A stretch of DNA of 64,000 bases. Source: Nocardiopsis ansamitocini. GTDB taxonomy: Bacteria > Actinomycetota > Actinomycetes > Streptosporangiales > Streptosporangiaceae. Each line of letters starts with the position of its first letter. The stretch's first letter is position 1. A model generated the notes under the pieces. The model did not search any database. It was not told where the DNA came from and worked only from the letters and a program-made list of their open reading frames with translations. Where the stretch lies: the NCBI RefSeq assembly GCF_030268225.1, contig NZ_BSQG01000011.1, positions 19,751 to 83,750 of the forward strand, read 5' to 3'. This document shows positions 1-17,997 of this stretch, piece after piece. The position numbers and the translations under genes are program-made.

Positions 1-147
1 CATCACGCCCTGGAAGAGCATGGAGACCGCTCGTCCGACGTCGTGGAGAAAGCGGAAGATATCGCGCTGGAGGACGACCTTGACGACCCTGAGGTCGTGG
101 GAGAACCCGTAGTCCGGTGCCTGGACGGCCGTGTCCGACGATGTCAC
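1..147 (-). CDS. hypothetical protein, N-terminal fragment (gene continues past the window start); GTG start overlaps the lanKC stop codon (GTGA)
   Basis: Minus-strand frame MTSSDTAVQAPDYGFSHDLRVVKVVLQRDIFRFLHDVGRAVSMLFQGVM... has very high GC3, unlike the overlapping plus-strand ORF 43..318. The GTG sits directly on the TGA of the upstream synthetase gene. No family recognised. Confidence 0.3.
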   Translation of the reverse strand, partial: MTSSDTAVQAPDYGFSHDLRVVKVVLQRDIFRFLHDVGRAVSMLFQGVM

Positions 148-2716
148 GCGTTGCCTCCCGCAGAACTCTCGCAGCCCCGCGCGGAGAAGAAGGGCAGGAA
201 CGGCGCCCCCTGTCCGCGCGCTGTGGCCAGGGCCAGGAGTATGCCGGCGCCCCCGGTCGCCAGGTCCATCGACAAACGGATACCACGGCCGCCGGGAAAA
301 GCGACGTGGCCGCGGTAGGGCAGGGTGTAGGCGGCCAACTCGCGGGCGCGCTCCTCGACCGCCTCGGGCGCACCGCCCATTCTGGCCAGGGTGACGAGCT
401 GCCCCGCTTTGCCGAAGAACAGATCGGCCCGCACGGTCAATCGGGCCAGCGCCGAACGGCACAGGCCCGGAACGGCTTCGCGCACCCGGGCGTCCTCCCG
501 GTGGGCCAACAGGTCGCCCGCCACCAGGGCGATCCCCATGCCGCCTGCTTCCAGGTACGGCAGGGCTCGGGCCCCCTTGTCCTTGACCAGCAGGGCATCG
601 TCATCCGACGTCACGCAGTGGTCGAGGTCCCGGTGGATCGCACGGACCGCGGCGTCGAGACAGGCGGGGTCGGCGGTCTGCTCATACATACGGACGAAGA
701 AGAGCGCGATTCCCGACCACCCGCGCATGAGGCCGACGGGCAGGGCTGCGGTCCGCCCGCTGCTCGCCCGCTCCGCGCCCTCCGGGGGACCGTTCTCCAC
801 GAAGCCGGCGAGCCGGTCGGCCAGCGCCACGGCCCGCTCCCGATACCGGGCGTCCCCGTGGCTGTCCGCGAAGTGCAACAGGGTGGCACCGACCCCGGAG
901 AGGCCCGAGAAGAGGGACATGCCCCCGCTGGGAGCATCCGCGTGCCGCTCCAGCAGGTCGGCCGCCTCTTCCCCGTATCCGAGGTGGTCGAGGGCGTAGG
1001 CGAGACCGGCCACACCGTCGTAGAACCCCGGGTTGGGCCGGACCAGTCGCCGCCCCGCGTCGATCAGCCACTGTTCGTGGTCGGGGTGGCGGCCGTGGCC
1101 CGCCGTGTCCAGTGCCCAGAGGACGCCGGCCGCGCCGTGCGCGAAACCGAAGCCACCCGAGACGAACTGCTGGATGTCCCCGGGGAAGAGGCGGTCCCGA
1201 CGCTCGGGGGTCGCCGAGGCGAGAACCCCGGCGGCGATCGCCGCCGGCGACGGGGCCGCGGCGGGCGGCCACTGCCCGGAGGCGGCGGCCGTGCCTTCCG
1301 GCACCATCTCGGCTTCGATCTCGTCCGCCCACTCCGGGGGGACGGGGAAGTTGCGGCGCACGATCGCGACGAACTCCGCGGCCTTGGCCGAGTCAAGGAC
1401 CGTGATCGGACTGAACAGCATGAACACCACCAGGCGCAGGGCGGCCATTCCGTAGTCGTCGATGGCGGTCCCGCGCCGCTGCGCGACGTTGAAGCCGGGT
1501 GCGCCGAGCCCCGGCTTCCATTGGGCGTCCGCCGCGTCGAACGACTGCTCGAAGTCGATGAGCGTCACCGTGTCGTCGGCATCGACGAGCACATTGTTGA
1601 CGTGCAGGTCACCGAAGACCAGGCCGCGCTTGTGCACCTCGCCGACGATCTCCTTGAGCCGGTCCATGATCCGCAGTGCCCTGCGGGTGTAGTCGGCGAC
1701 CTCCTCGTCGTCGGGGTCCGCCTTGTTGACCCACGGGTGGAAGGCCGCACACCAGGAGTAGAGCGGGAGCCCCTCCGCGTACTCCTGCACCAGGAAGCGG
1801 TGCCCGCCCAGGGGGAAACTGTCGAGAAGGCCCGGGACGCCCGAGATCCCGTCGAGTCGGGTGAGCGCCTTCTCCTCGCGTTCCTGCCGGGCGACGGCGT
1901 CGTCGCCGTTCCCGTCCAGACCGGCATGCGGACGGGCCTCCTTCAACACGACGGTCATGCCGTCGGTGAGGCGTTCCGCGAGGTAGACGCCTCCCCCGTT
2001 GGAAAAGTGCAGCGCCTTCAGGACACGGTAGGGCTGTTGGGCCTCGCCGTTCTGCCCGGTGCGCAGGTGCGGTTTCAGGAAGTCCGGCATCTCGACCCAG
2101 GCCGGTGGGGAGAAGGCGGGTTGGCGGAGGTCGGGGACGAGGGCGCCGTCCGGGCGCCGGATCGCGGGAACCAGTTCCCCGTCCGCACCGGTGCACCGCA
2201 TCTCGGCGAACCCGCCGTAGCGAACGTAGAGGGGCCCCTGGCCCCACCGGAGGTCGCTGAGGATGTAGGGGCCCGGTTCGCCGCCGATCTTCTCGGAGAG
2301 CCCGACGAGAATCGATTCCAGTTCCTTCTCGTCACGTGGATAGATCGTGACAAGTTTCCCGCTGGATGCCCGGGGCGCATATTTGGCGGAGAAAACGAAC
2401 TGGATTCTCCGGTTCATCAGATACTTGAACGGAATTCGCCGGGCAACGCAGTACTCTCGGACCGCTTCGCAGATCTCTTCGGCGTTGTCCAGGGTTGCGG
2501 AGACGTGAATCTTCCAGCCCTGTTCCGGAAGGTCTGCGCCCTCTGGAAAGAGGTAGCGCCAGACCCCCTGATCACCGCTTACCCACCCACTGGGACAGTC
2601 AAGGCCGGAGATCGAGAACTCTCCGTCGCCGAGAAAAGCCGGGCCGCCCGTCCACCGGCGCGGGTCTTCATAGAAAAGCGGGTCCGCTTGCGTGTAGACC
2701 TCTACCCGATCGAGCA
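144..2716 (-). CDS. lanKC: class III lanthipeptide synthetase (LanKC-type: N-terminal pSer/pThr lyase, central Ser/Thr kinase, C-terminal LanC-like cyclase lacking Zn ligands)
   Basis: Kinase motifs seen: HKRGLVFGDLHVNNVLVD and LIDFEQSF. The LanC-like C-terminus has GFAHGAAGVLWAL, but the WCxG position reads RGWSGIA (no Cys) and the CHG position reads LATGGAG (no Cys/His). Loss of zinc ligands is characteristic of class III rather than class IV. Start placed at GTG 2716 (GGAGA 6 nt upstream). Upstream of that the frame has low GC3 and is not coding, so the ORF-track start at 3023 is rejected. Confidence 0.85.
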
Positions 2717-2740
2717 CGAGTGTTCTCCATTCGACAAACC

Positions 2741-2767
2741 GAAAACCCCGGCCCCGGAGCGGGGACC
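2741..2767 (-). promoter_or_regulatory. GC hairpin followed by T-tract on the minus strand about 25 nt upstream of the lanKC start (terminator/attenuator-like)
   Basis: Minus-strand reading cggtccccgctccggggccgggg then tttt. It lies between the SHOCT-domain gene and lanKC. Confidence 0.3.
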
Positions 2768-3124
2768 GATCTCTTCGGGTCGGGCACGTGAACAGTGGCC
2801 TCTTTTCAAAGAGGCGGAACGGACCGACGGGTCCTCTTGCGCATAATGCCCGCCGCAGATCCCGCGCATTATCGCCGGGCATCCGTGCGGACACCCTATT
2901 CACGTGTCCGGTGCCGCTCCAGCTCCCGGCAGCAGCCATGGCTCGGACCGGAGGTCGACCGACAGGGGGCAACCGGCCACGACGTCCCCGGAACGGTACC
3001 GGCCGGACGCTTCGGCCGGGCACACGGCGAGGAACGCTTCGCCGTGGAGCATTGCGTCGGGGACGACGACGCCGTTGCAGGGTGGCCCCGAAGGTCTGCT
3101 CCTGCGGGGCGTTCGGCGGACGGC

Positions 3125-4045
3125 TCAGAGCCGGTCGAGCAGCTCGGCCTTCTTGGCGGCGAACTCGTCGTCGGTGAGGAAACCGTCGGCGTGCAGGCGG
3201 CCCAGTCGCTCGATCTGCGCGTAGACAGCGTCCTCCTCGTCACCGTCACCGGTTCCGGGCTCCCCCGCGGGAAGGGCCTCCGGCCCGGCCCCCAACTGGC
3301 GGGCCGGTTGGGCCGTTCCGGCCCAGATGTAGGCGGTGATGGTGGCCGCCATCAGCAGTGTCGCCGCTCCCTCCCGCCCTTCCTCGCACAACAGGCAGGA
3401 GAAGTCGTGCTTGGGCTTGACCGCTTCCTTGGCCGCGAAACCGTGCTCGACCACGCGCAGGTACCCGTATTCCCACCCGTCGGAGGGCACCCATTCGGCT
3501 GCGGCCACGCGGGAGAGGGGGAACTCGCGCCGTTGTTCCTTGCGCTTGCGCGTCGTGGCCGCGGAACCGGACCACACCAGCCGCACCGACGCACCGTCGA
3601 AGGTGGCGGTTCCCTCCTCCGTCGTGATGTGCAGCGGCAGCTTGGGAACGAGGCGGGTGGCCACCTGAGCGGGGTCCGTAGCCGTTGCGTCGTCGAGGGC
3701 GTTCTCGATCGCGAAGGTGATCTGGTCGGAGTAGTACTCGGCCAACAGCTCGGTCTTCGCCGGACCGGTCAGCCGGAAGGGCTGGGCCTTCTCGTTCAGC
3801 ATCGCGCCCGCAGTGGCGTAGGGGTCGGCGTGCTCCCGCAGGTGCAGCTGAAGGACCCACCCCTTCTTCTTCCCGGCTCCTGGCCGAAAATCCACCGAGG
3901 CGATGGCCGCGATCGGCACCTCGCACTGGCCGAGCTTCTTCAACAGGGGGTCTTTGAACCACCCGGTGGCGTAGCGGATGGCGATCGACTCACTGCCAAA
4001 ACGCCAGACGGCCTGTTTCCCGCGCAATTCATCCATCGGCGCCAT
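3125..4045 (-). CDS. DUF4429-like protein with C-terminal SHOCT domain
   Basis: C-terminus GFLTDDEFAAKKAELLDRL resembles the short SHOCT oligomerisation motif; the N-terminal two-thirds resemble DUF4429. High GC3; ATG at 4045. Confidence 0.55.
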   Translation of the reverse strand: MAPMDELRGKQAVWRFGSESIAIRYATGWFKDPLLKKLGQCEVPIAAIASVDFRPGAGKKKGWVLQLHLREHADPYATAGAMLNEKAQPFRLTGPAKTELLAEYYSDQITFAIENALDDATATDPAQVATRLVPKLPLHITTEEGTATFDGASVRLVWSGSAATTRKRKEQRREFPLSRVAAAEWVPSDGWEYGYLRVVEHGFAAKEAVKPKHDFSCLLCEEGREGAATLLMAATITAYIWAGTAQPARQLGAGPEALPAGEPGTGDGDEEDAVYAQIERLGRLHADGFLTDDEFAAKKAELLDRL

Positions 4046-4165
4046 TCTAGAGGGCCACGGGGCGACGGACCGGTCCGTTCGCCGCTTCCCCGCACACCGG
4101 ACCGGCCGGCGCAGCGTCGCCGCACGCCGACCGGCAGCAGTTTCAGGGCCGGACAGACCCTCCGC

Positions 4166-4999
4166 TCATCTGGCCCATTCCGGCCGTCGGGCCACGAGGA
4201 AGGTCTCCGACGGGGCGACCGGGCGAAGCAGGAGAAGGACGAAACCGAGCGTGCCGCGGAGGTTGTGCAGCCAGCTCTCCCGATAGTCCGATGTGTAGCG
4301 CAGGATCCGGGTCCGGGCGGCCGGGTCCTGCTCGTTGAAGCCCCAGTCGACGAGACCTCGGACGCACGCCCAGAGGAAGTTGTCCCACTCCTCGGCCGTG
4401 CTCACCTGGGCGTGGACGGGCATCCATCCCGCCGCGGTGACCTGTTCGAGCACACCGTTTAGGTCGGTGTGGGGGTCCTCGTCGAGGCTGAGCGCGGCGA
4501 GGGTCTGCTCGTTCGGGGGGCGGTGCCAGAAGCTCTCCCCCAACAGGACGTAGCCGTTGGGGAGCACCTGGGCGCGGAGGTGCTTCAAGGTGCCGTCCAG
4601 GCCGCCGAAGACCTCGGTGAGTCCCACACACATCACGAGGTCGCTGGGGTCCTGGGGCGTGAACGCGCGGGCGTTGACGGCGTGTCCGCTGAACCGGTCG
4701 GCCAGACCGCGGCGTTCGGCCTCCCGGGTGGCCCGGGCGATGTGCGCCGCGGAGAGGTCCACCCCGACGCACGAGGAGCCGGGGTGCAACTCCAGTGCGC
4801 GCAGCGACCAGGCGCCCAGACCGCAACCGATGTCGAGCACGGTCGCGTCGGACTTGAGCTCGACCATGCGCAGCAGTCGGTCGATGGTGGCCCCGGACAC
4901 GGGGCCCACCACCGGATGGTCGTCACCCAACCGGTTCCAGATGGCCTCATTGTCGATCCCGGTGTAGTCCATGGCCTGCGTCCTCTCGGGGGAACCCAC
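4166..4999 (-). CDS. class I SAM-dependent methyltransferase
   Basis: Motif I VLDIGCGLGAWS. GTG start directly abuts the TGA of the upstream gene (TGAGTG), with AGGAG 7 nt upstream. Alternative ATG at 4972. Confidence 0.8.
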   Translation of the reverse strand: MGSPERTQAMDYTGIDNEAIWNRLGDDHPVVGPVSGATIDRLLRMVELKSDATVLDIGCGLGAWSLRALELHPGSSCVGVDLSAAHIARATREAERRGLADRFSGHAVNARAFTPQDPSDLVMCVGLTEVFGGLDGTLKHLRAQVLPNGYVLLGESFWHRPPNEQTLAALSLDEDPHTDLNGVLEQVTAAGWMPVHAQVSTAEEWDNFLWACVRGLVDWGFNEQDPAARTRILRYTSDYRESWLHNLRGTLGFVLLLLRPVAPSETFLVARRPEWAR

Positions 5000-6511
5000 T
5001 CATCGCTCCTGGTCTTCGTCGGTGCCGTCGACCCATCGCCGCGCGGCTGCGGCGATCGCGTCGCGGGCCGCGCGCACCTCTGCCGCCAGGGGCCGGTCCC
5101 GGTCCAGCGGTGGGCTGATCTCGGCGAGCTCGGCCCAGAGGCTGTCGGGCTCGGCCTCCTGGCCGACCAGTGCGGCGTACTGGGCGAGGCCCACCCCGAG
5201 CGATCCGATGACGAGCCAGGCGTGCCCGAGCGCCTCGGCCACGGCGTTGGCACCGTTGAGCGCCATCGGGACATGGTCCTGGTTTCCGTTGTTGCAGGGC
5301 AGGGAGGTCAGAGAGGCCGGCACGACCAACTGCCTGATCCGGGAGACGAAAGACGTCGCGCTCACCTGCACACCGGCGAGTCCGCTGCCGGCTCCGGGCC
5401 GTGGGGTGAGCATCGGGGGCAGCCCACCGTTGGTCTCGGAAGCGCACAGCAGCGCGAGCTGCCGGTCGGCCAGGTAGGCCACCTGTTGGAGGCACAGGCC
5501 CAACTGGTCGGAGCACAGACCGACCGGCATGGCATGGAAGTTGCCGCCGTGCAGGACCTCTCCCTCGTAACAGACGGGGTTGTCCGTGGTCCCGCCGGCC
5601 TCACGGACAAGGATCTCCTCTTCCGCGTCCAACCGGTCCTGCACCGCTCCGAGGACCTGGGGGGCGCACCGGAGGCTGTAGGGCTCCTGAAGCGGACGCC
5701 CCGGGCCCCGCTCGGCCCCTTCGGGAAACTGCGACCTGATCCACCGGGCCACCCGTATCTGACCGTGTTGGCCTCTGACCTCGCCGATGCCGTGGTGGTA
5801 GGCCTGCGGATCCGCTCCCAGCAGGCGCGCCATCCTGCCGGTCAGGAGGGCGGACGCGCGCACCAGACGGGAGAGTTGCCGGTGGTTGTCGATGGTGAGT
5901 GCCAGCGAGACCCCGGTGCCGTTGACGAAGGCCAGCGCCTCGCGTGCAGACCACTCGACCGGCTCGGCGCCGACCGCTTCCAGTGCGCGCTCGGCGGGCA
6001 GGCAGACCCAGGCGCCCGCGTCGTCGCGCACCCACGCCTCCCCGCTTCCGCTGAAGGCGAGCGCGGCACTGGCCAGGGGCTGGAGGTCGCCGCTCGCGCT
6101 GACCGTCCCGTCCCGGGGGATCGCCGGGGTGAAACCGCTGTTCCACAACTTGGCGAGAAGCGACCAGAACTCCGGGGAGACCGCCGAGTGGCCCAGTCGC
6201 ATCCCGGACAGGCGCAACCACACCACCAGGCGACACACGTCGGGGGGCAGGGGACTGCCCTGGGCGGTCGCCAGATGGGCGATGAGCCCGCTGCCCTGTT
6301 CCTGGGCCGATTCGGCTGCGGGGAAGGCGACCAGCGGCCCGAATCCGTTCGTGACCCCGTAGACCGGCTTCCCGTCCGCGAGCGTCTTGGCCAGGGTGGT
6401 CATCCCGCCGCGCATCCGAGCGGCGTCCTCCTCTTCGCACTCCGCGAGTTCAGCGTCCCAATCCGCAGCTCGCGCGATCGCGGCGAGATTTCGCCGGGTA
6501 CCCGTCGTCAC
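5000..6511 (-). CDS. MIO-dependent aromatic amino acid ammonia-lyase/aminomutase (HAL/PAL/TAL family)
   Basis: MIO-forming tripeptide in TVSASGDLQPLAS. Also GFGPLV, NGTGVS, QEPYSLRCAPQ, HGGNFHAMPVG and NQDHVPMALNGAN. Start assigned to GTG at 6511, overlapping the stop of the upstream adenylating-enzyme gene (GTGA). Confidence 0.85.
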   Translation of the reverse strand: MTTGTRRNLAAIARAADWDAELAECEEEDAARMRGGMTTLAKTLADGKPVYGVTNGFGPLVAFPAAESAQEQGSGLIAHLATAQGSPLPPDVCRLVVWLRLSGMRLGHSAVSPEFWSLLAKLWNSGFTPAIPRDGTVSASGDLQPLASAALAFSGSGEAWVRDDAGAWVCLPAERALEAVGAEPVEWSAREALAFVNGTGVSLALTIDNHRQLSRLVRASALLTGRMARLLGADPQAYHHGIGEVRGQHGQIRVARWIRSQFPEGAERGPGRPLQEPYSLRCAPQVLGAVQDRLDAEEEILVREAGGTTDNPVCYEGEVLHGGNFHAMPVGLCSDQLGLCLQQVAYLADRQLALLCASETNGGLPPMLTPRPGAGSGLAGVQVSATSFVSRIRQLVVPASLTSLPCNNGNQDHVPMALNGANAVAEALGHAWLVIGSLGVGLAQYAALVGQEAEPDSLWAELAEISPPLDRDRPLAAEVRAARDAIAAAARRWVDGTDEDQER

Positions 6512-7626
6512 GTTTGCACTCCCGTGTTCGAGATCGGTTGCATCTGCACCCGCCGGAGTTTGCCCGTCTCGGAGCGGTCGATCCGGTCGACGGGAACCAC
6601 CTTGCGGGGACGGCATTCCAGTTCCGCCAGGGCGGCGGCCAGGTCGAGATCGGCTCCGGTACGGCCGCCGCCGGGAACGATCAGCAGGTCGAAGTGCTCG
6701 CCGATGAGGGGGTCGGTCACCGGCGTGCAGGCCAGGTCCGCACAGGACACCGAGGACCGCAGCCGTTCCTCGATGAGTTCGAGGTCGATCCTGCGTCCAT
6801 TGACGTTGACGAGCCGGCCGCGCCGACCGGCGAAGCCGAATCTGCGTGCGTCGATGATCCGCACCCGGTCGTCCATCTCCCAGGAATCCGGTGCGCGGCC
6901 GTCCGGAAAGCGAGCCAGCCGTGGACTGCGTACAGTTAGCGGAACTTCACCCTCGGTTGTACTCTCGGGGCGGGGCAGCGCGAACTCGACGTCCGGGCAC
7001 AGCTCCCAGGGCGGGTTCCCGCCGCTCCACCTGCGGGTGGCGATGGCACCGGTCTCCGTGGAGCCGAACAGTTCCAGCAGCGAGGCGGTTTCGGGGAACT
7101 TCGCAAGCAGGTCGGCGGCGGTGGCGGGGAGCACGGACGTGCTGTGGACAACGCTGACCCGTTCGAGAGAACGAACCCAGGAGGCTCGCTGAAGCAGAAT
7201 CCGAAAGGTCCAGGGGATGGCCATGACGGCCCAGCGCCGGTGCGGTTGCGGCGGCATGGCGGCGAACTGCGGGCGGTACCAAACAGGAAGCCCGAGCTTC
7301 GCGGGGACGAGGAGGCTGACGAGTGCCCCGTAGAGATGCCGGGGCGGAGCGAACGACAGGACCGCCTCGGGTCGGTCGGGTCCGATCATGGCCGCCAGGA
7401 GCGACGCTTCCGCCCACAGTTGCTCGCGACTGCGCCGCCAGCGTCGGCGTTCTCCGGTGGTCCCCGACGTGAAGAAGTCCAGTACCGGCGGGAACCGTTT
7501 CATGACGAAGTCCTCGACCGGTTCGTCCAGTTCGTCCCAGCGCACCGTCCAGGGGCGTTCGGTGAACTCGGGCGCCTGGAAGTCGCCGGCCAACAAGTCC
7601 GCCGGCGAGAGTCGGTCGTACGTCAC
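6508..7626 (-). CDS. short adenylate-forming enzyme (AMP-binding/ANL superfamily, PaaK-like size)
   Basis: FFTSGTTGERRRW (A3 core), GSTETG (A5-like), ETGKL (A10 Lys). Only about 372 aa. Start ambiguous: GTG 7626 (GGAGG 8 nt upstream, overlaps the uORF stop) or GTG 7662. Confidence 0.75.
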   Translation of the reverse strand: MTYDRLSPADLLAGDFQAPEFTERPWTVRWDELDEPVEDFVMKRFPPVLDFFTSGTTGERRRWRRSREQLWAEASLLAAMIGPDRPEAVLSFAPPRHLYGALVSLLVPAKLGLPVWYRPQFAAMPPQPHRRWAVMAIPWTFRILLQRASWVRSLERVSVVHSTSVLPATAADLLAKFPETASLLELFGSTETGAIATRRWSGGNPPWELCPDVEFALPRPESTTEGEVPLTVRSPRLARFPDGRAPDSWEMDDRVRIIDARRFGFAGRRGRLVNVNGRRIDLELIEERLRSSVSCADLACTPVTDPLIGEHFDLLIVPGGGRTGADLDLAAALAELECRPRKVVPVDRIDRSETGKLRRVQMQPISNTGVQT

Positions 7627-7703
7627 GCGACCGACCTCCGGTGCGCACGGCCCTTCGCGCACAATCGCGGAACCACCGTCTCCCCTCGGTCGAGGCAGGT
7701 CAT
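7623..7703 (-). CDS. 26-aa upstream ORF MTCLDRGETVVPRLCAKGRAHRRSVA, translationally coupled to the adenylating-enzyme gene
   Basis: ATG preceded by AAGGAGAG at 5 nt spacing. Its TGA overlaps GTG 7626 of the downstream gene (GTGA). No homology recognised. Confidence 0.3.
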   Translation of the reverse strand: MTCLDRGETVVPRLCAKGRAHRRSVA

Positions 7704-7877
7704 GGACTCTCCTTTGTCATATCCGTCGTGCAGTGGTGCCGAGGCGAAAAGCGCAGGCACGGGAGGGGCCACACCCTTCACCGGCCCGCCCGGCGGGAGG
7801 ACGCCGCACCCGCCGAGGTGTCCCGCCAGCGGGACGGTCCCGGATGCGGCCCGGAAGCGATCCCCTGCCGTTCGGCC

Positions 7878-8870
7878 TCAAGCCGAGGTGGAACCCACCC
7901 GCTTCTTCAGCGGTTCCCACCAGCTCCGGTTGTCCACGTACCAGCGCACGGTGTCGGCCAACCCCTGCCGGAAGGGCACCTGGTCCCGGTAGCCCAACTC
8001 GGTGCGGATCCTCGTGTGGTCGAGGGAGTAGCGGTGGTCGTGTCCCTTGCGGTCCTCGACGAAGCGCACCATCGACCAGTCGTGCCCCAGCTCCTTTAGG
8101 ACCAGTGCCGTCACCTGCTCGTTGGTCATCTCCACGGCGCTGCCGATGTTGTAGATCCGCCCCGGGTCACCGTGTTGCGCGACCAGGGCGATACCGGCGC
8201 AGTGGTCGTCGACGTGCACCCACTCGCGCACGTTGCTGCCGTCCCCGTAAAGGGGGACCGTCTCGCCGTCCAGGAGGTTCGTGACGAAGAGCGGGATCAG
8301 CTTCTCGGGGAACTGGTAGGGCCCGTAGTTGTTGCAGCACCGGGTGATGCACACCGCGAGACCGTGCGTCTTGTAGAAGGCACGGGCGATGAGATCGGCC
8401 GCGCCCTTCGTTGCCGCGTAGGGGGAGTTGGGCTCCAGCAGGCCCTGCTCGTCCCAGGACTCCGACGTGATCGTCCCGTAGACCTCGTCGGTCGACACGA
8501 GGACGAATTTGTCGACCTTCGCCCTCAACGCGCTGTCGAGAAGGGCGAACGTCCCGTTCACATTGCTGCGCAGGAACTCCGAACCGTCAGCGATGGAGCG
8601 GTCGACATGCGTCTCGGCCGCGAAGTGGACGACGAGCGAGACACCGGCCATCACCTCGTCGAGCAGAGCGGTGTCACAGATGTCCCCGGAGACGAATCTG
8701 AGCCGGGGGTCCTCCATTACGCGTTCCAGGCTCCCCAATGTTCCGGCGTAGGTCAGCTTGTCCAGGACCACGACCTCGGAGGCGTCCACCCCCGGATACG
8801 CGCCCGCGAGAACGCGTCGGACGAAATTCGATCCGACAAACCCAGCGCCGCCAGTGACCAGCATTCTCAT
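7878..8870 (-). CDS. rmlB: dTDP-glucose 4,6-dehydratase
   Basis: MRMLVTGGAGFVGSNFV Rossmann N-terminus, YAATKGAAD (YxxxK), LVSTDEVYG. Typical RmlB length of 330 aa. Confidence 0.9.
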   Translation of the reverse strand: MRMLVTGGAGFVGSNFVRRVLAGAYPGVDASEVVVLDKLTYAGTLGSLERVMEDPRLRFVSGDICDTALLDEVMAGVSLVVHFAAETHVDRSIADGSEFLRSNVNGTFALLDSALRAKVDKFVLVSTDEVYGTITSESWDEQGLLEPNSPYAATKGAADLIARAFYKTHGLAVCITRCCNNYGPYQFPEKLIPLFVTNLLDGETVPLYGDGSNVREWVHVDDHCAGIALVAQHGDPGRIYNIGSAVEMTNEQVTALVLKELGHDWSMVRFVEDRKGHDHRYSLDHTRIRTELGYRDQVPFRQGLADTVRWYVDNRSWWEPLKKRVGSTSA

Positions 8871-8882
8871 GTGCTCTCACCT

Positions 8883-9764
8883 CTACCGTGTGCCATTCGA
8901 GCGCCGAGCCTTTTCCATCACGTATCGACCGTACGGCGAGTCCTTCATCTCTTCTCCCAACCTGTGACACGCCTCCGCGTCGATGAATCCCATACGCAAC
9001 GCGATCTCTTCGAGGCAGGCGATGCGCTCGCCTTGTCCCTTCAGCACCGAGTGGACATAGCAGGCGGACTCGAAGAGGGACTCCTCCGTTCCCGCGTCGA
9101 ACCACGCGACACTGTCTTCCAGCGTCACGAAACGCGCCCTTTCCTGGGCAAGGTAAGCCCGGTTGACATCGGTGATCTCAAGTTCGCCGCGCGCCGACGG
9201 ACGAACCTCCTTGGCCACCTCGACCGCATCGGCGCCGTAGAAATAGAGCCCCGTCACCGCGTAGTCGGAATCGGGGCGTTCCGGTTTTTCCTCGATCGAG
9301 ATCAACCTCCCGGACCGGTCGAACCCCCCGACCCCGTAGCGGCACGGATCAAAGACCTTGTGTCCGAAGAGGACGCATCCGTCCACCGTGCGTGCGGCCT
9401 CCTGGACGGCTTCCTCGAATCCGGGGCCGTGGAACAGGTTGTCGCCCAGTACCAGCGCACTGGGTCGGCCGTCGATATGACGTTCGCCGATGAGCAGAGC
9501 CTCCGCGATTCCTCGCGGCTCTTTTTGCTCCCGGTAACCGATATCGAGACCGAGCCGCTTTCCGTCTCCGAACACCCGTTGCAGAGGGGAAATCGATTCG
9601 GGGGCGGAGATCACCAGAATTTCACGGATTCCAGCGAGCATGAGAACCGCGATCGGATAGTAGATCATCGGCTTGTCGTAGATGGGAAACAACTGCTTAG
9701 ACGCCGCACTCGTACTCGGCCGGAGACGGCTCCCGTTTCCTCCCGCCAGAACAATACCCTTCAC
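8883..9764 (-). CDS. rmlA: glucose-1-phosphate thymidylyltransferase
   Basis: VKGIVLAGGNGSRLRP at the GTG start, with AGGAG 5 nt upstream. Also EKPERPDSDYAVTGLYFY. The longer N-terminal extension in the ORF track is rejected. Confidence 0.9.
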   Translation of the reverse strand: MKGIVLAGGNGSRLRPSTSAASKQLFPIYDKPMIYYPIAVLMLAGIREILVISAPESISPLQRVFGDGKRLGLDIGYREQKEPRGIAEALLIGERHIDGRPSALVLGDNLFHGPGFEEAVQEAARTVDGCVLFGHKVFDPCRYGVGGFDRSGRLISIEEKPERPDSDYAVTGLYFYGADAVEVAKEVRPSARGELEITDVNRAYLAQERARFVTLEDSVAWFDAGTEESLFESACYVHSVLKGQGERIACLEEIALRMGFIDAEACHRLGEEMKDSPYGRYVMEKARRSNGTR

Positions 9765-10037
9765 AGAAACTCCTGGTCGGACAGAGCGGTGGGTTTCACC
9801 GAACCGTACACGGGGTCTCTCGGGTTTTGTCCAGACTCGGCACCGTTCCTGCACGATGGTATGTTCACCGAGCCAGGGAGCTATACGCCCCCACCCCTTC
9901 CCGACCCACGCGAAAAACCTGGACCGGCAGCCCGAACTCCCCAAGTTAAAGGCGGCAACAACGCCGACGGCACTCAATGGCCGACCTTTTCATTGCGGAT
10001 GACTTTCTCCGAACGCGTACCAGGAAAAGGAAATACC

Positions 10038-11318
10038 GTGCGCATCCTCATAGCGACATACGCAGACAGGTCCTACTTCTTCAGCATGGTGCCACTGGCA
10101 TGGGCGCTGCGGGCCGCGGGTCACGAGGTGCGAGTGGCCAGCCAGCCGGAGCTGACCGACGCGGCCGCAAGCACCGGCCTGACCGTACTCCCGGTCGGCG
10201 AGGACCACATGTCCAGGAAACTGCTGCACTCGCCGGCGACCCAGCAGTACCAGGACTACCAGGAATCCGCCTTCAACCTGGCCGAGGACCGGCCGGAGGA
10301 GCTGACGTGGGACCGCCTCAAGAAGGCGCAACTCCGGTTCGTCGTCTGGTGGTGGAAGGTGATCAACGAACCGATGCTGAAAGAACTCGTGGCCTTCTGT
10401 CGGGAGTGGCGGCCGGATCTGGTGATCTGGGAGCCGATGACCTTCGCCGGGGCAGTGGCCGCCGAGGCGTGCGGTGCCGCCCACGCCCGCTTCCTGTGGA
10501 GCTACGACCTGGTCGGCCAGAATCGCCGGAACTACCTGGAGGCGATGGCGGAGCAGCCCGCGCACGAGCATGCCGACCCGCTGCGCGAATGGCTCACCTC
10601 CCGCGCCGAGCGCTACGACGTCCCCTTCTCCGAGGACCTGATCAGAGGGCAGTTCTCGATCGGCCCCATTCCCGCCTCCCTCAGGGCCGGGGAGCCCGTG
10701 GTCGAGGAGAAGGTGGGCGTGCGCCATGTCCCCTACGAGGGGGCAACCGTCCTGCCCGGATGGCTGCGCACCCCACTCGAGCAGCGACGCGTGCTCGTGG
10801 ACTGGCGGGCGCTGCGGGCCGGTGACCCCGAACGCAGCGAGGCGGTCCTGCGGGAGGTGCTGGCCGGCGCGATCGGCCTGGACGCGGAAGTGCTGCTGGT
10901 CCTTCCGCCGGCGGACCGGGAGACACTCCCCCCCTTCCCCGACCGTGTGCGCGTCATCGAAGAGGGCATCTCCCACATCGTGCTTCCCACGTGCTCCGCG
11001 GTGGTCCACCCCGGAGGGTTCGACACGTACTGCACGTCCTTGCTGCACGGGGTGCCGCAGGTGATCGTCCCCGAGCCGGACCTGTTCGACGCGACGCCAC
11101 TGGCGAGTGCCCTGGCCGACGCCTCCGCGGGCAGCGTGCTCCCCTGGGCGGGGTGCACCGCCGGGGGCGTCCGGGAGCGGCTGGACGAGGTGCTCGGTTC
11201 CGCGGAGATAGCCGCGGGCGTCCGCCGACTCCAGCAGGAGGTACTGGCCATGCCCACACCGGACCTTCTCGTGGCGGAACTGGAACGCCTCACCGTCAAG
11301 CACCGGAAAGAGGACTGA
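10038..11318 (+). CDS. GT1-family glycosyltransferase (antibiotic/macrolide-type)
   Basis: VRILIATYADRSYFFSMVPLAWALRAAGHEVRVAS N-terminal domain and HPGGFDTYCTSLLHGVPQVIVP C-terminal nucleotide-sugar domain. GTG at 10038 with AAAGGA RBS. The remaining upstream part of ORF 8172..11318 is antisense shadow of rmlA/rmlB. Confidence 0.85.
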   Translation: MRILIATYADRSYFFSMVPLAWALRAAGHEVRVASQPELTDAAASTGLTVLPVGEDHMSRKLLHSPATQQYQDYQESAFNLAEDRPEELTWDRLKKAQLRFVVWWWKVINEPMLKELVAFCREWRPDLVIWEPMTFAGAVAAEACGAAHARFLWSYDLVGQNRRNYLEAMAEQPAHEHADPLREWLTSRAERYDVPFSEDLIRGQFSIGPIPASLRAGEPVVEEKVGVRHVPYEGATVLPGWLRTPLEQRRVLVDWRALRAGDPERSEAVLREVLAGAIGLDAEVLLVLPPADRETLPPFPDRVRVIEEGISHIVLPTCSAVVHPGGFDTYCTSLLHGVPQVIVPEPDLFDATPLASALADASAGSVLPWAGCTAGGVRERLDEVLGSAEIAAGVRRLQQEVLAMPTPDLLVAELERLTVKHRKED

Positions 11319-11351
11319 GCCGACCGCGGGCACCCGCTCCGGGGCGAGACT

Positions 11352-12599
11352 TCAGCCGGTGAGGTCGTGGAGGAGGGGGACGAGGTCGGCGGGGGCGGGC
11401 ATGTCCTGCATTTCCCGGCGCAGGCGGTCGGCCGACCGGGCGAACCCCGGCTCCCCGAGCAGCCGTCGTACCCGCTCCCCCACCGTCTCCCCCGTGGCGT
11501 CGGCGGAGTCCAGCGCGAACCCCGCGCCTGCCCGCTCCACCTCCCGGGCCAACAGCGGAGCGTCGAACAACCGGTCCCTTGGGGCGATGACCTGGGGAAC
11601 CCCGTGGGTGAGCGAGGTGAACACGGTCCCCGGCCCGCCCTGGTCGACCATGGCGTGGCAGGTGGGGGTGAGTGCGTGGAGGGGGGCGTAGTCGACGAGG
11701 CGGGTGTTGGGGGGGATGGGTCCGAGGGTGTGGTGGTGGGCGGTGGGGATGGTGGCGATGATTTCGGCGTCGAGGTCGGCGAGTCCGTTGAGGATGTCGG
11801 TGACGGAGACGGTGTAGCCGCCGAAGCGTTCGGAGGCGCTGGTGCCCAGGGTGAGGCAGATGCGGGGTCGGTGGGGTGGGGTGCGCAGCCAGTGGGGGAC
11901 GACGGCGCGCCCGTTGTAGGGGACGTAGCGCATCGGCAGGTACCTGGCGTCGGACAACGGATCGATCCGCAGCGAGGGAGGAACCTGGTCGATGGTGGCC
12001 TGGCCGTGGACGAGTTCTTCGTCATAATCGAGGCCGTAGCGTGCGGCGAGGGCGGTGAGCCAGGCGGCTAGGGGGTCTTCTTGCTGGTCGGGGGGCTGCT
12101 CGCCCATCCGCCGCAGGTACAACCCCCGCATCCGGGAGAACAGGTCGAGGCTCCAGAGGAAGCGGACGTGGGCGGCCCCGCAGGCCCTGGCCGCGATCGC
12201 CCCCGCGAACGTCGTGGGCTCCCAGATCACCAGGTCCGGACGCCACTGGCGGCAGAACGCCACCAGGTCGCCCAGCATCGGCTCGTTGACCATGCGCCAC
12301 CACCAGGTCACCATCTGGCGATAGCCATCCCTCATGTAATCCCAGGTGAGAACCTCGTCGCGGTCTTCACCCATGTCGAAGACCGCGGTCCGGCCGCCGG
12401 CCGCGCGTTTGACCATCCTCGGAAAAGAGTGGTTGCGGCCCACGGGCACGAAGGGCAGTCCGGCACCGGTGACCACACCTTCGAGTTCGGGCTGACTGGC
12501 CACCCGCACCTCGTGCCCGGCCGCCCGCAACGCCCACGCCACGGGAACCATCCCCAGAAAATGCGTCCGCTCGGCCTGGGCCGCGATCACCACGCGCAC
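11352..12599 (-). CDS. GT1-family glycosyltransferase, paralog of 10038..11318, convergent
   Basis: VRVVIAAQAERTHFLGMVPVAWALRAAGHEVRVAS and HAMVDQGGPGTVFTSLTHGVPQVIAP. GTG 12599 with GAGGTGG RBS. Confidence 0.85.
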   Translation of the reverse strand: MRVVIAAQAERTHFLGMVPVAWALRAAGHEVRVASQPELEGVVTGAGLPFVPVGRNHSFPRMVKRAAGGRTAVFDMGEDRDEVLTWDYMRDGYRQMVTWWWRMVNEPMLGDLVAFCRQWRPDLVIWEPTTFAGAIAARACGAAHVRFLWSLDLFSRMRGLYLRRMGEQPPDQQEDPLAAWLTALAARYGLDYDEELVHGQATIDQVPPSLRIDPLSDARYLPMRYVPYNGRAVVPHWLRTPPHRPRICLTLGTSASERFGGYTVSVTDILNGLADLDAEIIATIPTAHHHTLGPIPPNTRLVDYAPLHALTPTCHAMVDQGGPGTVFTSLTHGVPQVIAPRDRLFDAPLLAREVERAGAGFALDSADATGETVGERVRRLLGEPGFARSADRLRREMQDMPAPADLVPLLHDLTG

Positions 12600-12660
12600 G
12601 AATCCCCACCTCTCCCGCACCTGCGCACCGCTTCCCCCGGCGGCTGCGCCCGGCACACGA

Positions 12661-13659
12661 TCATCGCGCGACTGCGCGGGCTTCCCGGCTGTGTTCCGCC
12701 TGCGCCTCGGCCGCACGGATCGTGCTGCCGGTGTACTCCAGGAAGACGTCGTCGAGGGACGGCGGCGTCACCCTGATGGAGCGGACCGGGAACTTCAGGT
12801 CGGCGAACAGGCGCGGAACGAATTCCTCGCCCTCGGCGACCGTGAAGACGACGTTCTCCCCCTCGATCTGCGGAGCGATCCCGAACCGGTCCAGCAGCAC
12901 CGCACCGAGGGCGTCGGCCTCGGCCGAGACCATCTCCACCCGGTCCTTGCCGACGCTCTCCTTGAGCGCCCGGGGGCTGTCCAGCACCGCGATGGAGCCT
13001 TCGTCGATGATGGCGATCCGCTGACAGTTCTCGGCTTCCTCCAGGTAATGCGTCGTCATGAAAACGGTCACGCCGTCGCGCTCGTTGATCTCGCGGATGC
13101 CTTCCCAGATGGCCTGTCTGGTCTGCGGGTCGAGACCGATCGTCGGCTCGTCGAGGAAGAGCACGCGGGGCGAGTGGAGCAGGCCGCGGGCGATCTCCAG
13201 GCGTCGGCGCAGGCCACCGGAATAGGTCCCCACGATCCGGTCCTTGTGGCTGCCCAGGCCGACGGTCTCGATCGCGCGGTCGATCCGCTCCTCCACCAGG
13301 TGCTTGGGAACGGCGTAGATCTCGGCGTGGAACCGGAGGTTCTGCCGTCCGGTCAGGTAGCGGTCGAGGGTCTGCTCCTGGAAGACCAGCCCGATGGTGC
13401 GGCGGACCTCCTGGCGTTGGTGCACGACGTCGTAACCCCCGACGGAAGCGGATCCGCCCGTCGGAGTGAGGAGGGTGCACAGCATCTTGATGACCGTGGA
13501 CTTGCCCGCACCGTTGGGGCCGAGAAAACCGAAGATCTCGCCCGGCTCGACCTCGAAGTCGACGCCCTTGACCGCCTCGACCTCGTCGTAGCGCTTGTGG
13601 AGGCCGCGCGCGGACACGGCAGGGGCGGCGTTTCCTCCGGGCACACCCGAGTGGGTCAC
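12661..13659 (-). CDS. ABC transporter ATP-binding protein (DrrA-like); no cognate permease in the window
   Basis: Walker A GPNGAGKST, signature YSGGLRRRLEIA, Walker B VLFLDEPT. GTG start with GAGGAGG RBS. Confidence 0.85.
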   Translation of the reverse strand: MTHSGVPGGNAAPAVSARGLHKRYDEVEAVKGVDFEVEPGEIFGFLGPNGAGKSTVIKMLCTLLTPTGGSASVGGYDVVHQRQEVRRTIGLVFQEQTLDRYLTGRQNLRFHAEIYAVPKHLVEERIDRAIETVGLGSHKDRIVGTYSGGLRRRLEIARGLLHSPRVLFLDEPTIGLDPQTRQAIWEGIREINERDGVTVFMTTHYLEEAENCQRIAIIDEGSIAVLDSPRALKESVGKDRVEMVSAEADALGAVLLDRFGIAPQIEGENVVFTVAEGEEFVPRLFADLKFPVRSIRVTPPSLDDVFLEYTGSTIRAAEAQAEHSREARAVAR

Positions 13660-13734
13660 CGGGCCAACCTCCTCAAGAGTCGGGCAACAGCTCCGGCCTC
13701 CGGCCGTTTATCGACGTGACCGGCCGTTGCGTGG

Positions 13735-14301
13735 TCAGGACGCGGGCGGACCCGCGGCGAGCGTCCGGACGAACTCAACACCTGCCGTCTCCCACTGCTC
13801 CCGGTAGACGGCGAAGACGTTCGCCGTCCTCAACTGGTCGCCGTCCTTCACGTACTCGGGGAACACGACCTCTTTGACGGCGTCGATCGGGGTGCCGTCC
13901 AGCGCGGCGATCGAGTCGTCGAGCGTCCAGAAGTAGATCTTCCTGATGTTCCACATCGAGAACGCGTAGTTGGCGGTCAGCGCGGTCGCGGCGGTCGCGG
14001 CTCCCGGCCCGCCGCGAGACGGGTCGAGCGCCACGCTGCACTTCACGTAACCGCTGTGCGGGCTGAGTTCGTGCAACGAGGTGTAGCCGACGATCCTCCC
14101 CGACTCCGGGTGCACGATCTCGAACTGGGCGCAGACCTGCTGGTGCGGACCGTTGGGCCAGAGCGACATGGACGTGAAGGCGTCGCGGCTGGGGAGCTTC
14201 TCCAACCCCAGACCGGTCAGTTCCTCGAAAACGGCGCTACCGGTACGGGTCTGAGCGGCGGTGAGCCGGATCCCGAGCGCTTCGGTGTGCGGAATTATCA
14301 C
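13735..14301 (-). CDS. GNAT-family N-acetyltransferase (RimL/acetyltransf_3-like)
   Basis: SRGGPGAATAATALTANYAF matches the acetyl-CoA-binding motif A (R-G-x-G-x-A). GTG start at 14301. The ORF-track 5-prime extension to 14505 overlaps the precursor gene and hairpin and is rejected. Confidence 0.5.
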   Translation of the reverse strand: MIIPHTEALGIRLTAAQTRTGSAVFEELTGLGLEKLPSRDAFTSMSLWPNGPHQQVCAQFEIVHPESGRIVGYTSLHELSPHSGYVKCSVALDPSRGGPGAATAATALTANYAFSMWNIRKIYFWTLDDSIAALDGTPIDAVKEVVFPEYVKDGDQLRTANVFAVYREQWETAGVEFVRTLAAGPPAS

Positions 14302-14348
14302 GTCTGGAAACCCTCGACTACGAAATATTGACTGGCACCAAAGGAGTC

Positions 14349-14378
14349 GGCGTGCGCCGCGCAACCGCGGCGCACGCC
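14349..14378. terminator. perfect 13-bp inverted repeat (GGCGTGCGCCGCG-caac-CGCGGCGCACGCC), 10 nt downstream of the precursor gene stop
   Basis: Read directly. Sits between the precursor peptide and the GNAT gene, like the attenuator hairpins common after RiPP structural genes. Confidence 0.5.
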
Positions 14379-14387
14379 GGTGACCGA

Positions 14388-14489
14388 TCAACCGCAGTTG
14401 AAGTAACTGGCCCCACTGTTGGCCAGAAAAACCTGGTCGGACTCGATTTCCAACTCCTGAAGGGAGAGGATGTCGGAAAGCGTCATCAT
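14388..14489 (-). CDS. lanA1: class III lanthipeptide precursor peptide candidate (33 aa): MMTLSDILSLQELEIESDQVFLANSGASYFNCG
   Basis: Not in the ORF track (below its size cutoff). AAAGAGGTGG Shine-Dalgarno immediately upstream. The leader carries an ILELQ-like motif (DILSLQELEIE). The core carries exactly one Ser-x-x-Ser-x-x-x-Cys motif (SGASYFNC), the labionin/lanthionine-forming pattern of class III substrates. Confidence 0.6.
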   Translation of the reverse strand: MMTLSDILSLQELEIESDQVFLANSGASYFNCG

Positions 14490-15286
14490 GCCACCTCTTT
14501 CTCAATCACTAGGACGCCGCGAAAATCGCCCGCACCCCAGGGTCCGGGCCAATAATCGAAGGCGAAAGGATAAGTTAGGAGCACACCACGCTATCGGAAG
14601 CAGACCCCTTGAGAAACCGAAGAAAGCAGAACTGCCCTTTCAGCTGCCATCAAAAGTAGGCCAATGCGTCCGAACGCGCAAGAATAGGCACCCGAAACGA
14701 AATTGGCCCTCCTCCCGACGGGTCCCGCCGGCGGGACACCCGGTCCGCCCCCGCAGCCGGTGGACCACACGTTGCCCCTGATGTCCCCACGCCTCCCCAC
14801 CAGCGGCTCCGACGCCTGGAGGCCCTTCGTCCCCGCCCGCGCACTACCGCCGGTGACCTGCCCCGAACGGCTCACCCCCGGCACCATCCGACCTTCCCGC
14901 ACACCAGTGGGCCGGCGCCGGTGTCCCCCTATTCTTGGCCACGGCACAGTCGCGTCCGGCACGATCGACGATCGTCGTGCGCACCGCCCATCCGTCCGTC
15001 TCACGTCCCCGGCATGTCCTGCGGAGGCACGCCGGAAAAGAAAGACCGGGCACCGGGGCGGGAGACACCGATCCGCCCCGAGCGCCGGGACGGCGCGGGG
15101 CCGGGAGAGCGACGGGAGACCGCTTCGCGCCGTGGCTCTCGCGGCCAGGAAGCGGGACGACGGCCCCGATGACGCCTGGCCCCGGCGGGCACCTGGTGCC
15201 GGCCTTTGACACTCTTCGGCAGGGGAGACAGCGCACAGACGGTCCTCTTCCGGGCTGACGGACCGATTCGGCAGGGAAGGATATGG

Positions 15287-16609
15287 ATGGTGATGAGCGA
15301 TCAGGCCGCGCGGATCCTCGACGAGGTCCGCGCCTACCACCGGGAGACCCAGCAGGAACAGGAGTTCATTCCGGGTGTCACCGAGATCTGGTCATCCGGC
15401 GCGGTTCTCGACGAAGAGGACCGGGTGTCTCTGGTCGAGGCCGCCCTGGAGATGCGGATCGCAGCGGGCAGGAACTCGCGCAAATTCGAGTCCATCTTCG
15501 CCCGCAGGCTGAACCGGCGCAAAGCCCACCTGACCAACTCCGGTTCGTCGGCGAACCTGCTCTCCCTGTCGGCGCTGACGTCGCACCTGTTGGAAGAACG
15601 CCGGCTCCGGCCCGGCGACGAAGTGATCACGGTCGCCGCGGGGTTCCCCACCACCGTCAACCCGATCCTGCAGAACGGGCTGATCCCGGTATTCGTGGAC
15701 GTCGAGCTGCGGACCTACAACACCACCGCCGATCGGGTGGCTCAAGCGATCGGTCCGCGCACCCGGGCGATCATGATCGCGCACGCGTTGGGCAACCCGT
15801 TCGAGGCCACCGAAATCGCCCAGTTGGCCGAGGACAACGACCTGTTCCTGATCGAGGACAACTGCGACGCCGTGGGCTCCACCTACGACGGGCGACTGAC
15901 GGGTTCCTTCGGCGACCTGTCGACGGTGAGCTTCTATCCGGCCCATCACCTCACCATGGGCGAAGGCGGCTGCGTGCTCACCTCGAACCTGGTTCTGGCC
16001 CGGATCGTGGAGTCGATGCGCGACTGGGGGCGGGACTGCTGGTGCGAACCCGGGGAGAGCAACACCTGCCACAAGCGGTTCGCCTACCAGCTGGGCACGC
16101 TGCCGGCCGGGTACGACCACAAGTACACCTTCTCCCACGTGGGCTACAACCTGAAGGGAACCGATCTTCAGGCGGCTCTCGGTCTGAGCCAACTCACCAA
16201 ACTCGACGGGTTCTCAGCGGCCCGGCGTCGCAACTGGCGCCGGCTGCGCGAGGGTCTCGACGGCCTGCCGTGGCTGCTGCTTCCCGAGGCGACACCGCGC
16301 GGCGATCCGAGCTGGTTCGGTTTCGTTATGACTGTTTCGCCAGCGGCACCGTTCAGCAGAGCGGAACTGGTCGAGTTCCTGGAGAACCGAAAGATCGGTA
16401 CCCGCCTGCTGTTTGCCGGGAATCTGACACGGCACCCCGCGTACATCGACCGCCCCCACCGCGTGGCCGACGACCTGACCAACAGTGACCTGATCACGGA
16501 GCAGACGTTCTGGACCGGTGTCTATCCGGGACTCACCGACGAGATGCTCGACTACGTCATCTCCTCCATCACCGAGTTCGTGAAGACACGCGGGGGCTCT
16601 GGCCATTGA
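15287..16609 (+). CDS. NDP-4-keto-6-deoxyhexose 3-dehydrase (E1/ColD/SpnQ-type, PMP- and [2Fe-2S]-dependent member of the DegT/DnrJ/EryC1 aminotransferase fold)
   Basis: [14 protein letters not shown] has His where aminotransferases have the PLP lysine. Exact C-X57-C-X1-C-X7-C spacing (EDNC ... [13 protein letters not shown]), the E1 iron-sulfur signature. ATG 15287 with GGAAGGA RBS. Confidence 0.85.
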
Positions 16610-16814
16610 ACACGACCGGCACGGCCTGGAAAATGATTCCCCGAGCGGTTAACAGTCGACTTCCCCAGCGGGATAAATACGGCCGGAGAACAACCCGACT
16701 TCCATTTTCGCCGCGTGGCGGGTAATTTCTGTTCACGCTGTCCGGTTAACTCGGGACAGCGACTCGCACACTGGACTATCAGATTTCGAGTAGACCTGAG
16801 GAGGTGATTATTTC

Positions 16815-16934: not shown

Positions 16935-17053
16935 TCCGCGATTATGCGGTCACATTGGGTTCGGACCCGTGATGATCCGTGGCACTGCTTTTCGCGGTTC
17001 GAATAGCAGGGCCGCGGGGAATGAGCGGCGAAGCGGACCCACAGGTGGGGAGC

Positions 17054-17081: not shown

Positions 17082-17118
17082 GTTGCGTATGCGGGCCCCT
17101 GCCGCGTACGGCTGTGCC

Positions 17119-17979: not shown

Positions 17980-17997
17980 GGCTGGGGCCTCCTGGAG

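Follow-up and report, generated by a model that had tools for sequence, protein, structure and literature searches.

The closest described counterparts of the genes considered here belong to the saccharomicin (sam) gene cluster of Saccharothrix espanaensis. Its lyase Sam8 was experimentally proven to convert tyrosine into trans-p-coumaric acid in saccharomicin biosynthesis, and the ligase Sam7 was proposed to make caffeoyl-coenzyme A (caffeoyl-CoA); an assay of Sam7 was not found in the reachable literature. The gene order sam6-sam7-sam8-sam9 and the sizes of the encoded proteins have been reported (PMC3469384 supplement 3), and the window matches both, also when it is set against the fetched sam locus (L053). 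A further point of reference is the regulator LmbU, which binds the palindrome core CGCCGGCG (PMC6510168). Here, we describe a stretch of 64 kb from Nocardiopsis ansamitocini (the window, i.e., the whole stretch of DNA that was analysed), in which a short ligase of the ANL superfamily, a 4-methylideneimidazole-5-one (MIO)-dependent lyase and a 26-codon open reading frame (ORF) upstream of the ligase gene are all encoded on the minus strand. With this enzyme pair, the cassette known since the saccharomicin work gains one more copy. Taken as a whole, it is probable that the window holds a Sam7/Sam8 cassette which follows the coumarate route and is transcribed from an LmbU-box operon inside a lanthipeptide cluster, and that the upstream ORF is incidental.

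The prediction that the MIO enzyme is a tyrosine ammonia-lyase is well supported, because the protein shares 62% identity with the proven Sam8 over its full length (311/498 residues, 600 bits) and conserves both the Ala-Ser-Gly triad and a His-Leu pair; an exact look-up confirmed that the Sam8 sequence used as reference is that of the S. espanaensis tyrosine ammonia-lyase (CCH33126.1). The triad, recognized already in the initial annotation, consists of A139-S140-G141 (6097-6089) and aligns with that of Sam8, and the match to Pfam Lyase_aromatic (PF00221) reaches 363.8 bits at a cut-off of 27.3. His79-Leu80 (6277-6272) pairs with the His-Leu of Sam8 (LIAHLATAQG vs LISHLGTGQG), and work on the tyrosine ammonia-lyase of R. 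sphaeroides reportedly showed that the His-Leu pair governs substrate selectivity. Coumaric acid, one of the products that the initial annotation had envisaged for the enzyme pair, is thus borne out by the identity to Sam8 and the His-Leu pair. A plain catabolic histidase, which would have spoken against a biosynthetic role, is not what the sequence resembles: the lyase scores 296.3 bits with the histidine ammonia-lyase model HutH (TIGR01225), for which the cut-off is 539, and it stands in a secondary-metabolite setting, with biosynthetic rather than hut catabolic genes as its neighbours. The start codon of the lyase gene, GTG 6511, is overlapped by the ligase stop codon (TGA, 6510-6508), so that the two genes are joined by a GTGA, as had been read from the DNA at the outset. 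RefSeq lets the lyase begin at this GTG (WP_285761579.1, 503 amino acids (aa)), whereas the original GenBank entry (GLU50035.1, 471 aa) begins at a later ATG at 6415, 32 codons past the RefSeq start; the RefSeq start is favoured, because homologues are about 500 aa long.

The ligase, 372 aa from GTG 7626 also according to RefSeq, shows 50% identity to Sam7 (374 aa; 189/375 residues), and the two align over their full length and from residue 1 onwards (MGYAELSPEELL against MTYDRLSPADLL). Its affiliation with the ANL superfamily is apparent from the match to Pfam AMP-binding (PF00501; 34.8 bits, cut-off 29.9), which covers only residues 60-210, and from the AlphaFold model (predicted local distance difference test score 84.7), which Foldseek matches to many ANL structures with a probability of 1.0. 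In the best sequence match within the PDB, residues 63-373 of the ligase are aligned to residues 212-555 of an acyl-CoA synthetase that is 569 aa long; about 150 residues at the N-terminus of a canonical ANL enzyme are thus missing from the ligase. What is short by the standard of the superfamily is the regular size among its relatives, and the description of the enzyme as undersized does not hold: at least 235 homologues were found, and the best 120 of 235, which come from many actinomycete genera, are mostly about 360-390 aa long. Conservation extends to the ANL motifs: S54, G55, T57, G58, T190, E191, D252/D253 and R268 are invariant in the family alignment, K356 is present in at least 90% of the sequences, and the motifs TSGTTG, STE, DD, GRR..NG.R and GK, which relate to adenylation and thioester formation, are all conserved.

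The N-terminus of the ligase deserves separate mention, because the upstream ORF ends exactly there. Of the 120 listed homologues, 94 allowed a conserved motif to be placed, and its Trp occupies position 26, as it does in the ligase read from GTG 7626, in 59/94 and one of positions 25-27 in 74/94. This agreement among homologue N-termini, together with the ligase's own Shine-Dalgarno sequence GGAGG 8 nt upstream, fixes the start at GTG 7626 and not at GTG 7662, the alternative that the initial annotation had raised. A ligase that truly starts at ATG 7703 and is read through a frameshift was likewise considered and rejected, as it would add about 26 residues that most homologues lack.

Among the loci of ligase relatives that were fetched (counts over 52 or 54 loci), ligase and lyase genes occur together in 45/54, usually in the company of glycosyltransferase and deoxysugar genes. 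A gene of the Sam7-like family almost always overlaps a Sam8-like lyase gene, and the ligase of the window fits this family in size, similarity and position. The Sam7-like short ligases form a large family of predicted function. Carrier proteins offer a hint at what these ligases acylate: a small acyl carrier protein (ACP) gene lies directly 5' of the ligase gene in 21 related loci (about 40% of those fetched: L018, L022, L025-L027, L029, L031-L041, L048-L050 and L054), sometimes with overlapping stop and start codons, which suggests that the short ligase loads the carrier protein in ACP-bearing clusters. Ketosynthase genes were found in 15 loci, and a ligase resembling fatty acyl-AMP ligases in 15 loci. 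The window contains no carrier-protein gene, and CoA is therefore the likely acceptor here. In the resulting scheme, the lyase would convert L-tyrosine into p-coumaric acid, and the ligase would turn p-coumarate first into the acyl-adenylate and then into a thioester, with CoA as the probable thiol acceptor in N. ansamitocini and a dedicated ACP in the 21 related loci.

The control of this cassette is suggested by a perfect 16-bp palindrome of the form GTC(C/T)CGC-NN-GCG(G/A)GAC, which occurs twice in the 64 kb, both times in a promoter region of the cluster. The same box is present in one to four copies in 46/52 fetched loci, which represent more than ten actinomycete genera, and also in the sam locus (L053, 7560-7575), and usually lies 50-230 nt 5' of the ligase gene or of the gene that opens its operon; in the window, the ligase start is about 200 nt 3' of the box. 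Its half-sites vary independently, which fits the binding site of a dimeric protein rather than an RNA hairpin. The LmbU core CGCCGGCG is exact at 14722-14737, and the copy at 7820-7835 reads CGCCAGCG, with one mismatch. Moreover, Sam4 of the saccharomicin cluster is an LmbU-family regulator (NF038070; 234.7 bits, cut-off 125), and Sam4 homologues are encoded in 15 further loci, i.e., 16 when Sam4 itself is counted, often adjoining a box. When the regions around the two boxes of the window were aligned, they had nothing in common beyond the box. A TetR gene (17998-18684) was considered as the regulator acting on the palindrome and was rejected, as it is conserved in none of the related loci. 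Judging from these matches, both boxes are putative LmbU-type sites, and the operon of the ligase and the operon of a lanthipeptide precursor with its GNAT-like neighbour are apparently co-regulated; ligase, lyase and methyltransferase genes would form a tightly packed operon behind the box of an LmbU-family activator. The 16-bp box may offer a way of switching on these silent clusters.

The second component of the locus is a set of class III lanthipeptide genes. The lanthionine synthetase LanKC exceeds the cut-off of NF038151 by a wide margin (961.4 bits against 575) and also matches Pfam RamC_N. Precursors were recognized by an (I/L)L-x-LQ leader motif combined with an S-x-x-S-x-x-x-C core, which picks out two short genes: precursor A1 has the leader motif ILSLQEL and the core SGASYFNC, and precursor A2 has VLLLQ and SGLSITGC. 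The NCBIfam models for class III precursors match below cut-off only (16.5 bits against 30). Homologues of A1 occur in two related loci (L011 and L013), and A2 is absent from the protein collection. Translation of A2 would start from the strongest Shine-Dalgarno sequence of the window, AGGAGGTGAT (16799-16808), a 10-nt match to the anti-Shine-Dalgarno sequence in front of ATG 16815. The initial annotation had assigned this rank to the sequence in front of the upstream ORF, and it passes to A2, whose signal is stronger and precedes a real small gene. A1 overlaps the 5' end of a mechanically called ORF of 256 aa; the GNAT-like gene behind A1 really starts at GTG 14301. The GNAT-like protein matches Pfam Acetyltransf_3 and Acetyltransf_1 weakly, and a search for its homologues gave only four matches; in S. 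atratus, a homologue is encoded directly 5' of the ligase gene.

How the two components relate to each other can be envisaged in two ways. By analogy with saccharomicin, the coumaroyl product could be an aglycone that is glycosylated on its phenol. By analogy with goadvionin, the GNAT protein could move the activated acyl group onto the modified class III-type peptide's N-terminus. Along the latter line, we tentatively propose that the GNAT-like protein puts a p-coumaroyl group on the leader-free core cyclised by LanKC, and that the two glycosyltransferases and the methyltransferase then decorate the product, which would be a class III lanthipeptide with a phenylpropanoid cap and amino-deoxysugars attached. 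No report tying a tyrosine ammonia-lyase to a lanthipeptide, nor one of such a hybrid type, was found in the searchable literature. A single integrated pathway is favoured by three observations: the genes of the two components are interleaved, LmbU boxes are common to both, and the architecture recurs in two genera. The alternative, rather unlikely but the strongest of those considered, is that two independent pathways are interleaved, one for a saccharomicin-like coumaroyl glycoside and one for a SapB-like morphogen peptide. In its favour, the gene list of saccharomicin is without LanKC, as are most ligase loci within 10 kb; the S. atratus locus, in which a member of the same GNAT family adjoins the ligase gene, is LanKC-less; and RefSeq labels A1 as ‘SapB/AmfS family’. 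Two separate pathways are harder to reconcile with the position of LanKC (144-2717) and the precursors (14.4 and 16.8 kb), which flank the lyase, ligase and sugar genes on opposite sides, and with the identical type of LmbU box before both operons, that of precursor and GNAT and that of the ligase. Furthermore, LanKC lies within 10 kb of the cassette in 12/54 fetched loci from both Nocardiopsis and Streptomyces and in differing gene orders, and homologous short precursors accompany it in 9 of these 12.

The 26-codon ORF upstream of the ligase gene encodes MTCLDRGETVVPRLCAKGRAHRRSVA and reads as had been claimed for it: its ATG (7703-7701) follows AAGGAGAG (7714-7707) at good spacing, and its TGA (7625-7623) overlaps the GTG of the ligase gene (7626-7624). 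Most likely, this ORF is real as a sequence but incidental, without a part as conserved regulator or as product. The overlap of stop and start is automatic, because the second codon of the ligase gene begins with A, and GTG-A creates a TGA in that frame. Comparable Shine-Dalgarno-led short ORFs that end at the ligase start were found neither in 48 loci of ligase relatives nor in the saccharomicin locus, which were compared for this feature; what ends there is a full-length gene, for a glycosyltransferase or an ACP, or nothing. The peptide is absent from a collection of 15 billion proteins, and the ORF has neither an annotation nor an NCBIfam match. An Rfam scan of positions 1-20000 at E ≤ 1 gave no match, and the leader folds no better than its shuffles (z = -0.24) and has no attenuator-like structure. 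In the whole window, 24 Shine-Dalgarno-preceded ATG ORFs of at least 20 codons were observed, against 8.0 ± 2.0 in shuffled sequence, so about eight such cases per window are expected by chance. The two roles that the initial annotation had offered, a leader peptide or an unrecognized small protein on the one hand and an acyl acceptor or carrier on the other, thus find no backing; the acyl groups could be accepted by the precursor peptides encoded at 14388-14489 and 16815-16934. Two other identities were tried and rejected. A decayed ACP gene was suggested by the ACP genes that hold this position elsewhere, and similarity to ACPs is found nowhere in the window. A lanthipeptide precursor would be expected to carry a leader motif, and the peptide has neither such a motif nor a family match. 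As it lies 3' of the LmbU box, the ORF is probably part of the transcript, provided that the box marks the promoter; it would then be located in a probable 5' leader, where ribosomes may scan it. That it is actually translated by ribosomes is conceivable, if rather doubtful.

A number of observations weigh against the overall account given at the outset. Some of them concern the upstream ORF and speak for an alternative in which it is functional: its translation, ending on the GTG of the ligase gene, would deliver ribosomes or open the leader and thereby tune the expression of ligase, lyase and methyltransferase. The position of the ORF would indeed allow termination and reinitiation at the ligase start. 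It is intergenic, on the same strand, preceded by a 7-nt Shine-Dalgarno match and probably transcribed; only 40/2000 dinucleotide-preserving shuffles of the 251-nt leader (2%) yield a Shine-Dalgarno sequence with an ATG ORF of at least 20 codons. Since even the closest ligase sequenced so far shares only 62% identity, the absence of the ORF from other loci says little against a function confined to this lineage. A regulatory role is nevertheless improbable, as GTG 7626 is preceded by a GGAGG of its own at ideal spacing, the overlap follows from the GTG-A, other loci have no such ORF, neither attenuator-like structure nor Rfam family is present, and an Arg-rich peptide is what random translation of high-GC DNA typically yields. 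Other observations concern regulation and enzymes: the 64-kb window lacks an LmbU-family gene; a scan of 7550-7950 for sigma-70-like promoters and terminators detected none; the ligase scores only 60.7 bits with the model for 4-coumarate-CoA ligases of the photoactive yellow protein (PYP) type (TIGR02372), the single curated model of a short coumarate ligase, for which the cut-off is 334.7; and the choice of CoA over another acceptor, like that of a lyase over a mutase, is drawn from homology. Finally, an alternative in which the MIO enzyme acts as a tyrosine 2,3-aminomutase and the ligase activates its β-tyrosine for incorporation, as in the enediyne and chondramide pathways, is highly improbable: the MIO family contains mutases, the solved tyrosine aminomutase (PDB 2ohy) is clearly related (163 bits, 1e-46) and the lyase stays under every NCBIfam equivalog cut-off (histidase, flexirubin tyrosine ammonia-lyase, tyrosine and phenylalanine aminomutases, phenylalanine ammonia-lyase), but the 163 bits compare with 600 bits and 62% identity for Sam8, the tyrosine 2,3-aminomutase model (TIGR03832) is matched with 199.7 bits at a cut-off of 501, which gives no support to the β-aryl amino acid once envisaged as a product, and genes for a nonribosomal peptide synthetase or a peptidyl carrier were not found in the window.

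Table 1. Positions of the cassette, the regulatory boxes, the lanthipeptide genes and neighbouring genes in the window.
Feature	Position	Strand	Basis or remark
ABC-2 permease	1-147	-	GTG overlapped by the LanKC stop (GTGA); runs off the left window edge
Class III lanthionine synthetase LanKC	144..2717	-	Start near 2705-2717; NF038151, Pfam RamC_N
S-adenosylmethionine-dependent methyltransferase	4166..4999	-	Pfam methyltransferase domains; start directly after the lyase stop
MIO-dependent tyrosine ammonia-lyase (predicted), Sam8 homologue, 503 aa	5000..6511	-	Pfam Lyase_aromatic, Sam8 identity
Sam7-type short ANL ligase, 372 aa	6508..7626	-	Sam7 identity, Pfam AMP-binding, ANL fold
26-codon upstream ORF	7623..7703	-	Direct reading; ATG 7703-7701, TGA 7625-7623
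GGAGG, Shine-Dalgarno sequence of the ligase gene	7635..7639	-	8 nt before GTG 7626
AAGGAGAG, Shine-Dalgarno-like, before the upstream ORF	7707..7714	-	AAAGGAG, a 7-nt match to the anti-Shine-Dalgarno complement
Perfect 16-bp palindrome GTCCCGCCAGCGGGAC, putative LmbU-type box	7820..7835	.	Palindrome scan; 5' of the ligase operon
dTDP-glucose 4,6-dehydratase	7878-8870	-	5' of the ligase
Glucose-1-phosphate thymidylyltransferase	8883 to about 9780	-	5' of the ligase; sugar-gene block 7878..9977
EryCIII-like glycosyltransferase, first	10038-11318	+	Convergent with the second glycosyltransferase
EryCIII-like glycosyltransferase, second	11352-12599	-	Convergent with the first glycosyltransferase
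GNAT-like acyltransferase, 188 aa	13735..14301	-	Immediately 3' of precursor A1; RefSeq ‘GNAT family protein’
Class III lanthipeptide precursor A1, MMTLSDILSLQELEIESDQVFLANSGASYFNCG, 33 aa	14388..14489	-	RefSeq WP_285761587.1 ‘SapB/AmfS family lantipeptide’
Second perfect palindrome GTCCCGCCGGCGGGAC	14722..14737	.	Divergent promoter region of precursor A1 and the DegT gene
Class III precursor A2, MALSDVLLLQGMEIETAGNDVPLLGSGLSITGCTVLQAA, 39 aa	16815..16934	+	Unannotated; behind the strongest Shine-Dalgarno sequence of the window

The remaining genes of the region complete this picture (Table 1). Homologues of the methyltransferase hold an equivalent position in the Nocardiopsis loci. The cluster region includes amino-deoxysugar genes and also encodes an ABC ATPase resembling DrrA and an aminotransferase of the DegT type. 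Because the ABC-2 permease gene that is coupled to LanKC runs off the left end, the cluster probably continues past that edge of the window. An ‘unknown 447-aa protein’ at 9990-11333 (minus strand) turned out to be a shadow ORF, with its GC content highest at codon position 1 and no Pfam match; the real gene is the glycosyltransferase on the plus strand. Between the methyltransferase and LanKC lies a gene for a DUF4429/SHOCT protein (3125-4045, minus strand), which has a counterpart in none of the related loci. Further away (30902-38012, plus strand), the genes for an SPFH/Band-7 protein of 707 aa and, behind it, a DUF3686/DUF7902/AAA ATPase of 1659 aa form a pair unrelated to the cluster.

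Several described systems invite comparison. A solved structure from Dyadobacter fermentans, PDB 4gs5 (‘acyl-CoA synthetase-like’, 350 residues), is a short ANL protein like the ligase and its second-best Foldseek match (E 6e-16), but it is only 18% identical. The PYP system also places a tyrosine ammonia-lyase beside a short ANL ligase, and its 4-coumarate-CoA ligase model TIGR02372, with 386 positions, is the best NCBIfam match of the ligase. However, the score given above lies too far below the cut-off for membership, the PYP gene itself is absent, and the PYP system belongs to phototrophic proteobacteria, whereas the Sam7-like cassette is found in actinomycetes. The LmbU regulon of lincomycin biosynthesis is linked to the window by palindromes that contain or nearly contain CGCCGGCG and by the LmbU-family genes in 16 related loci including sam; it differs in that the motif here is a predicted site, longer at 16 bp (GTCYCGC-NN-GCGRGAC), and in that the window has no LmbU gene. 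With the lipolanthines and goadvionins, for which the GNAT is GdvG, the window shares LanKC, precursors that are short and have one S-x-x-S-x-x(-x)-C core each, a gene of the GNAT type beside a precursor and acyl-activating genes, together with an ACP in the Streptomyces relatives; a LanD-type decarboxylase was not seen, and the window has glycosylation genes in addition.

The closest likeness remains that to saccharomicin. The order of nucleotidyltransferase, ligase, lyase and methyltransferase genes is the same as in S. espanaensis, ligase and lyase genes overlap by 4 nt in both, and the proteins are of nearly equal size (374/510 aa for Sam7/Sam8, 372/503 aa in the window). An LmbU box lies 5' of the cassette in both cases, with EryCIII-type glycosyltransferase and deoxysugar genes nearby. 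Differences concern the tailoring functions: the window has no homologues of Sam5 (4-coumarate 3-hydroxylase), Sam10 (sulfotransferase) and Sam36 (amidase), encodes only two glycosyltransferases, and its methyltransferase is not an orthologue of Sam9; direct comparison rejected both this orthology and that of the 256-aa ORF with Sam10. Unlike the saccharomicin cluster, the window adds LanKC, two precursors and the GNAT-like protein, and it is this embedding of a known cassette in a class III lanthipeptide cluster that leads to a testable prediction, namely a new aromatic-acylated, glycosylated lanthipeptide.

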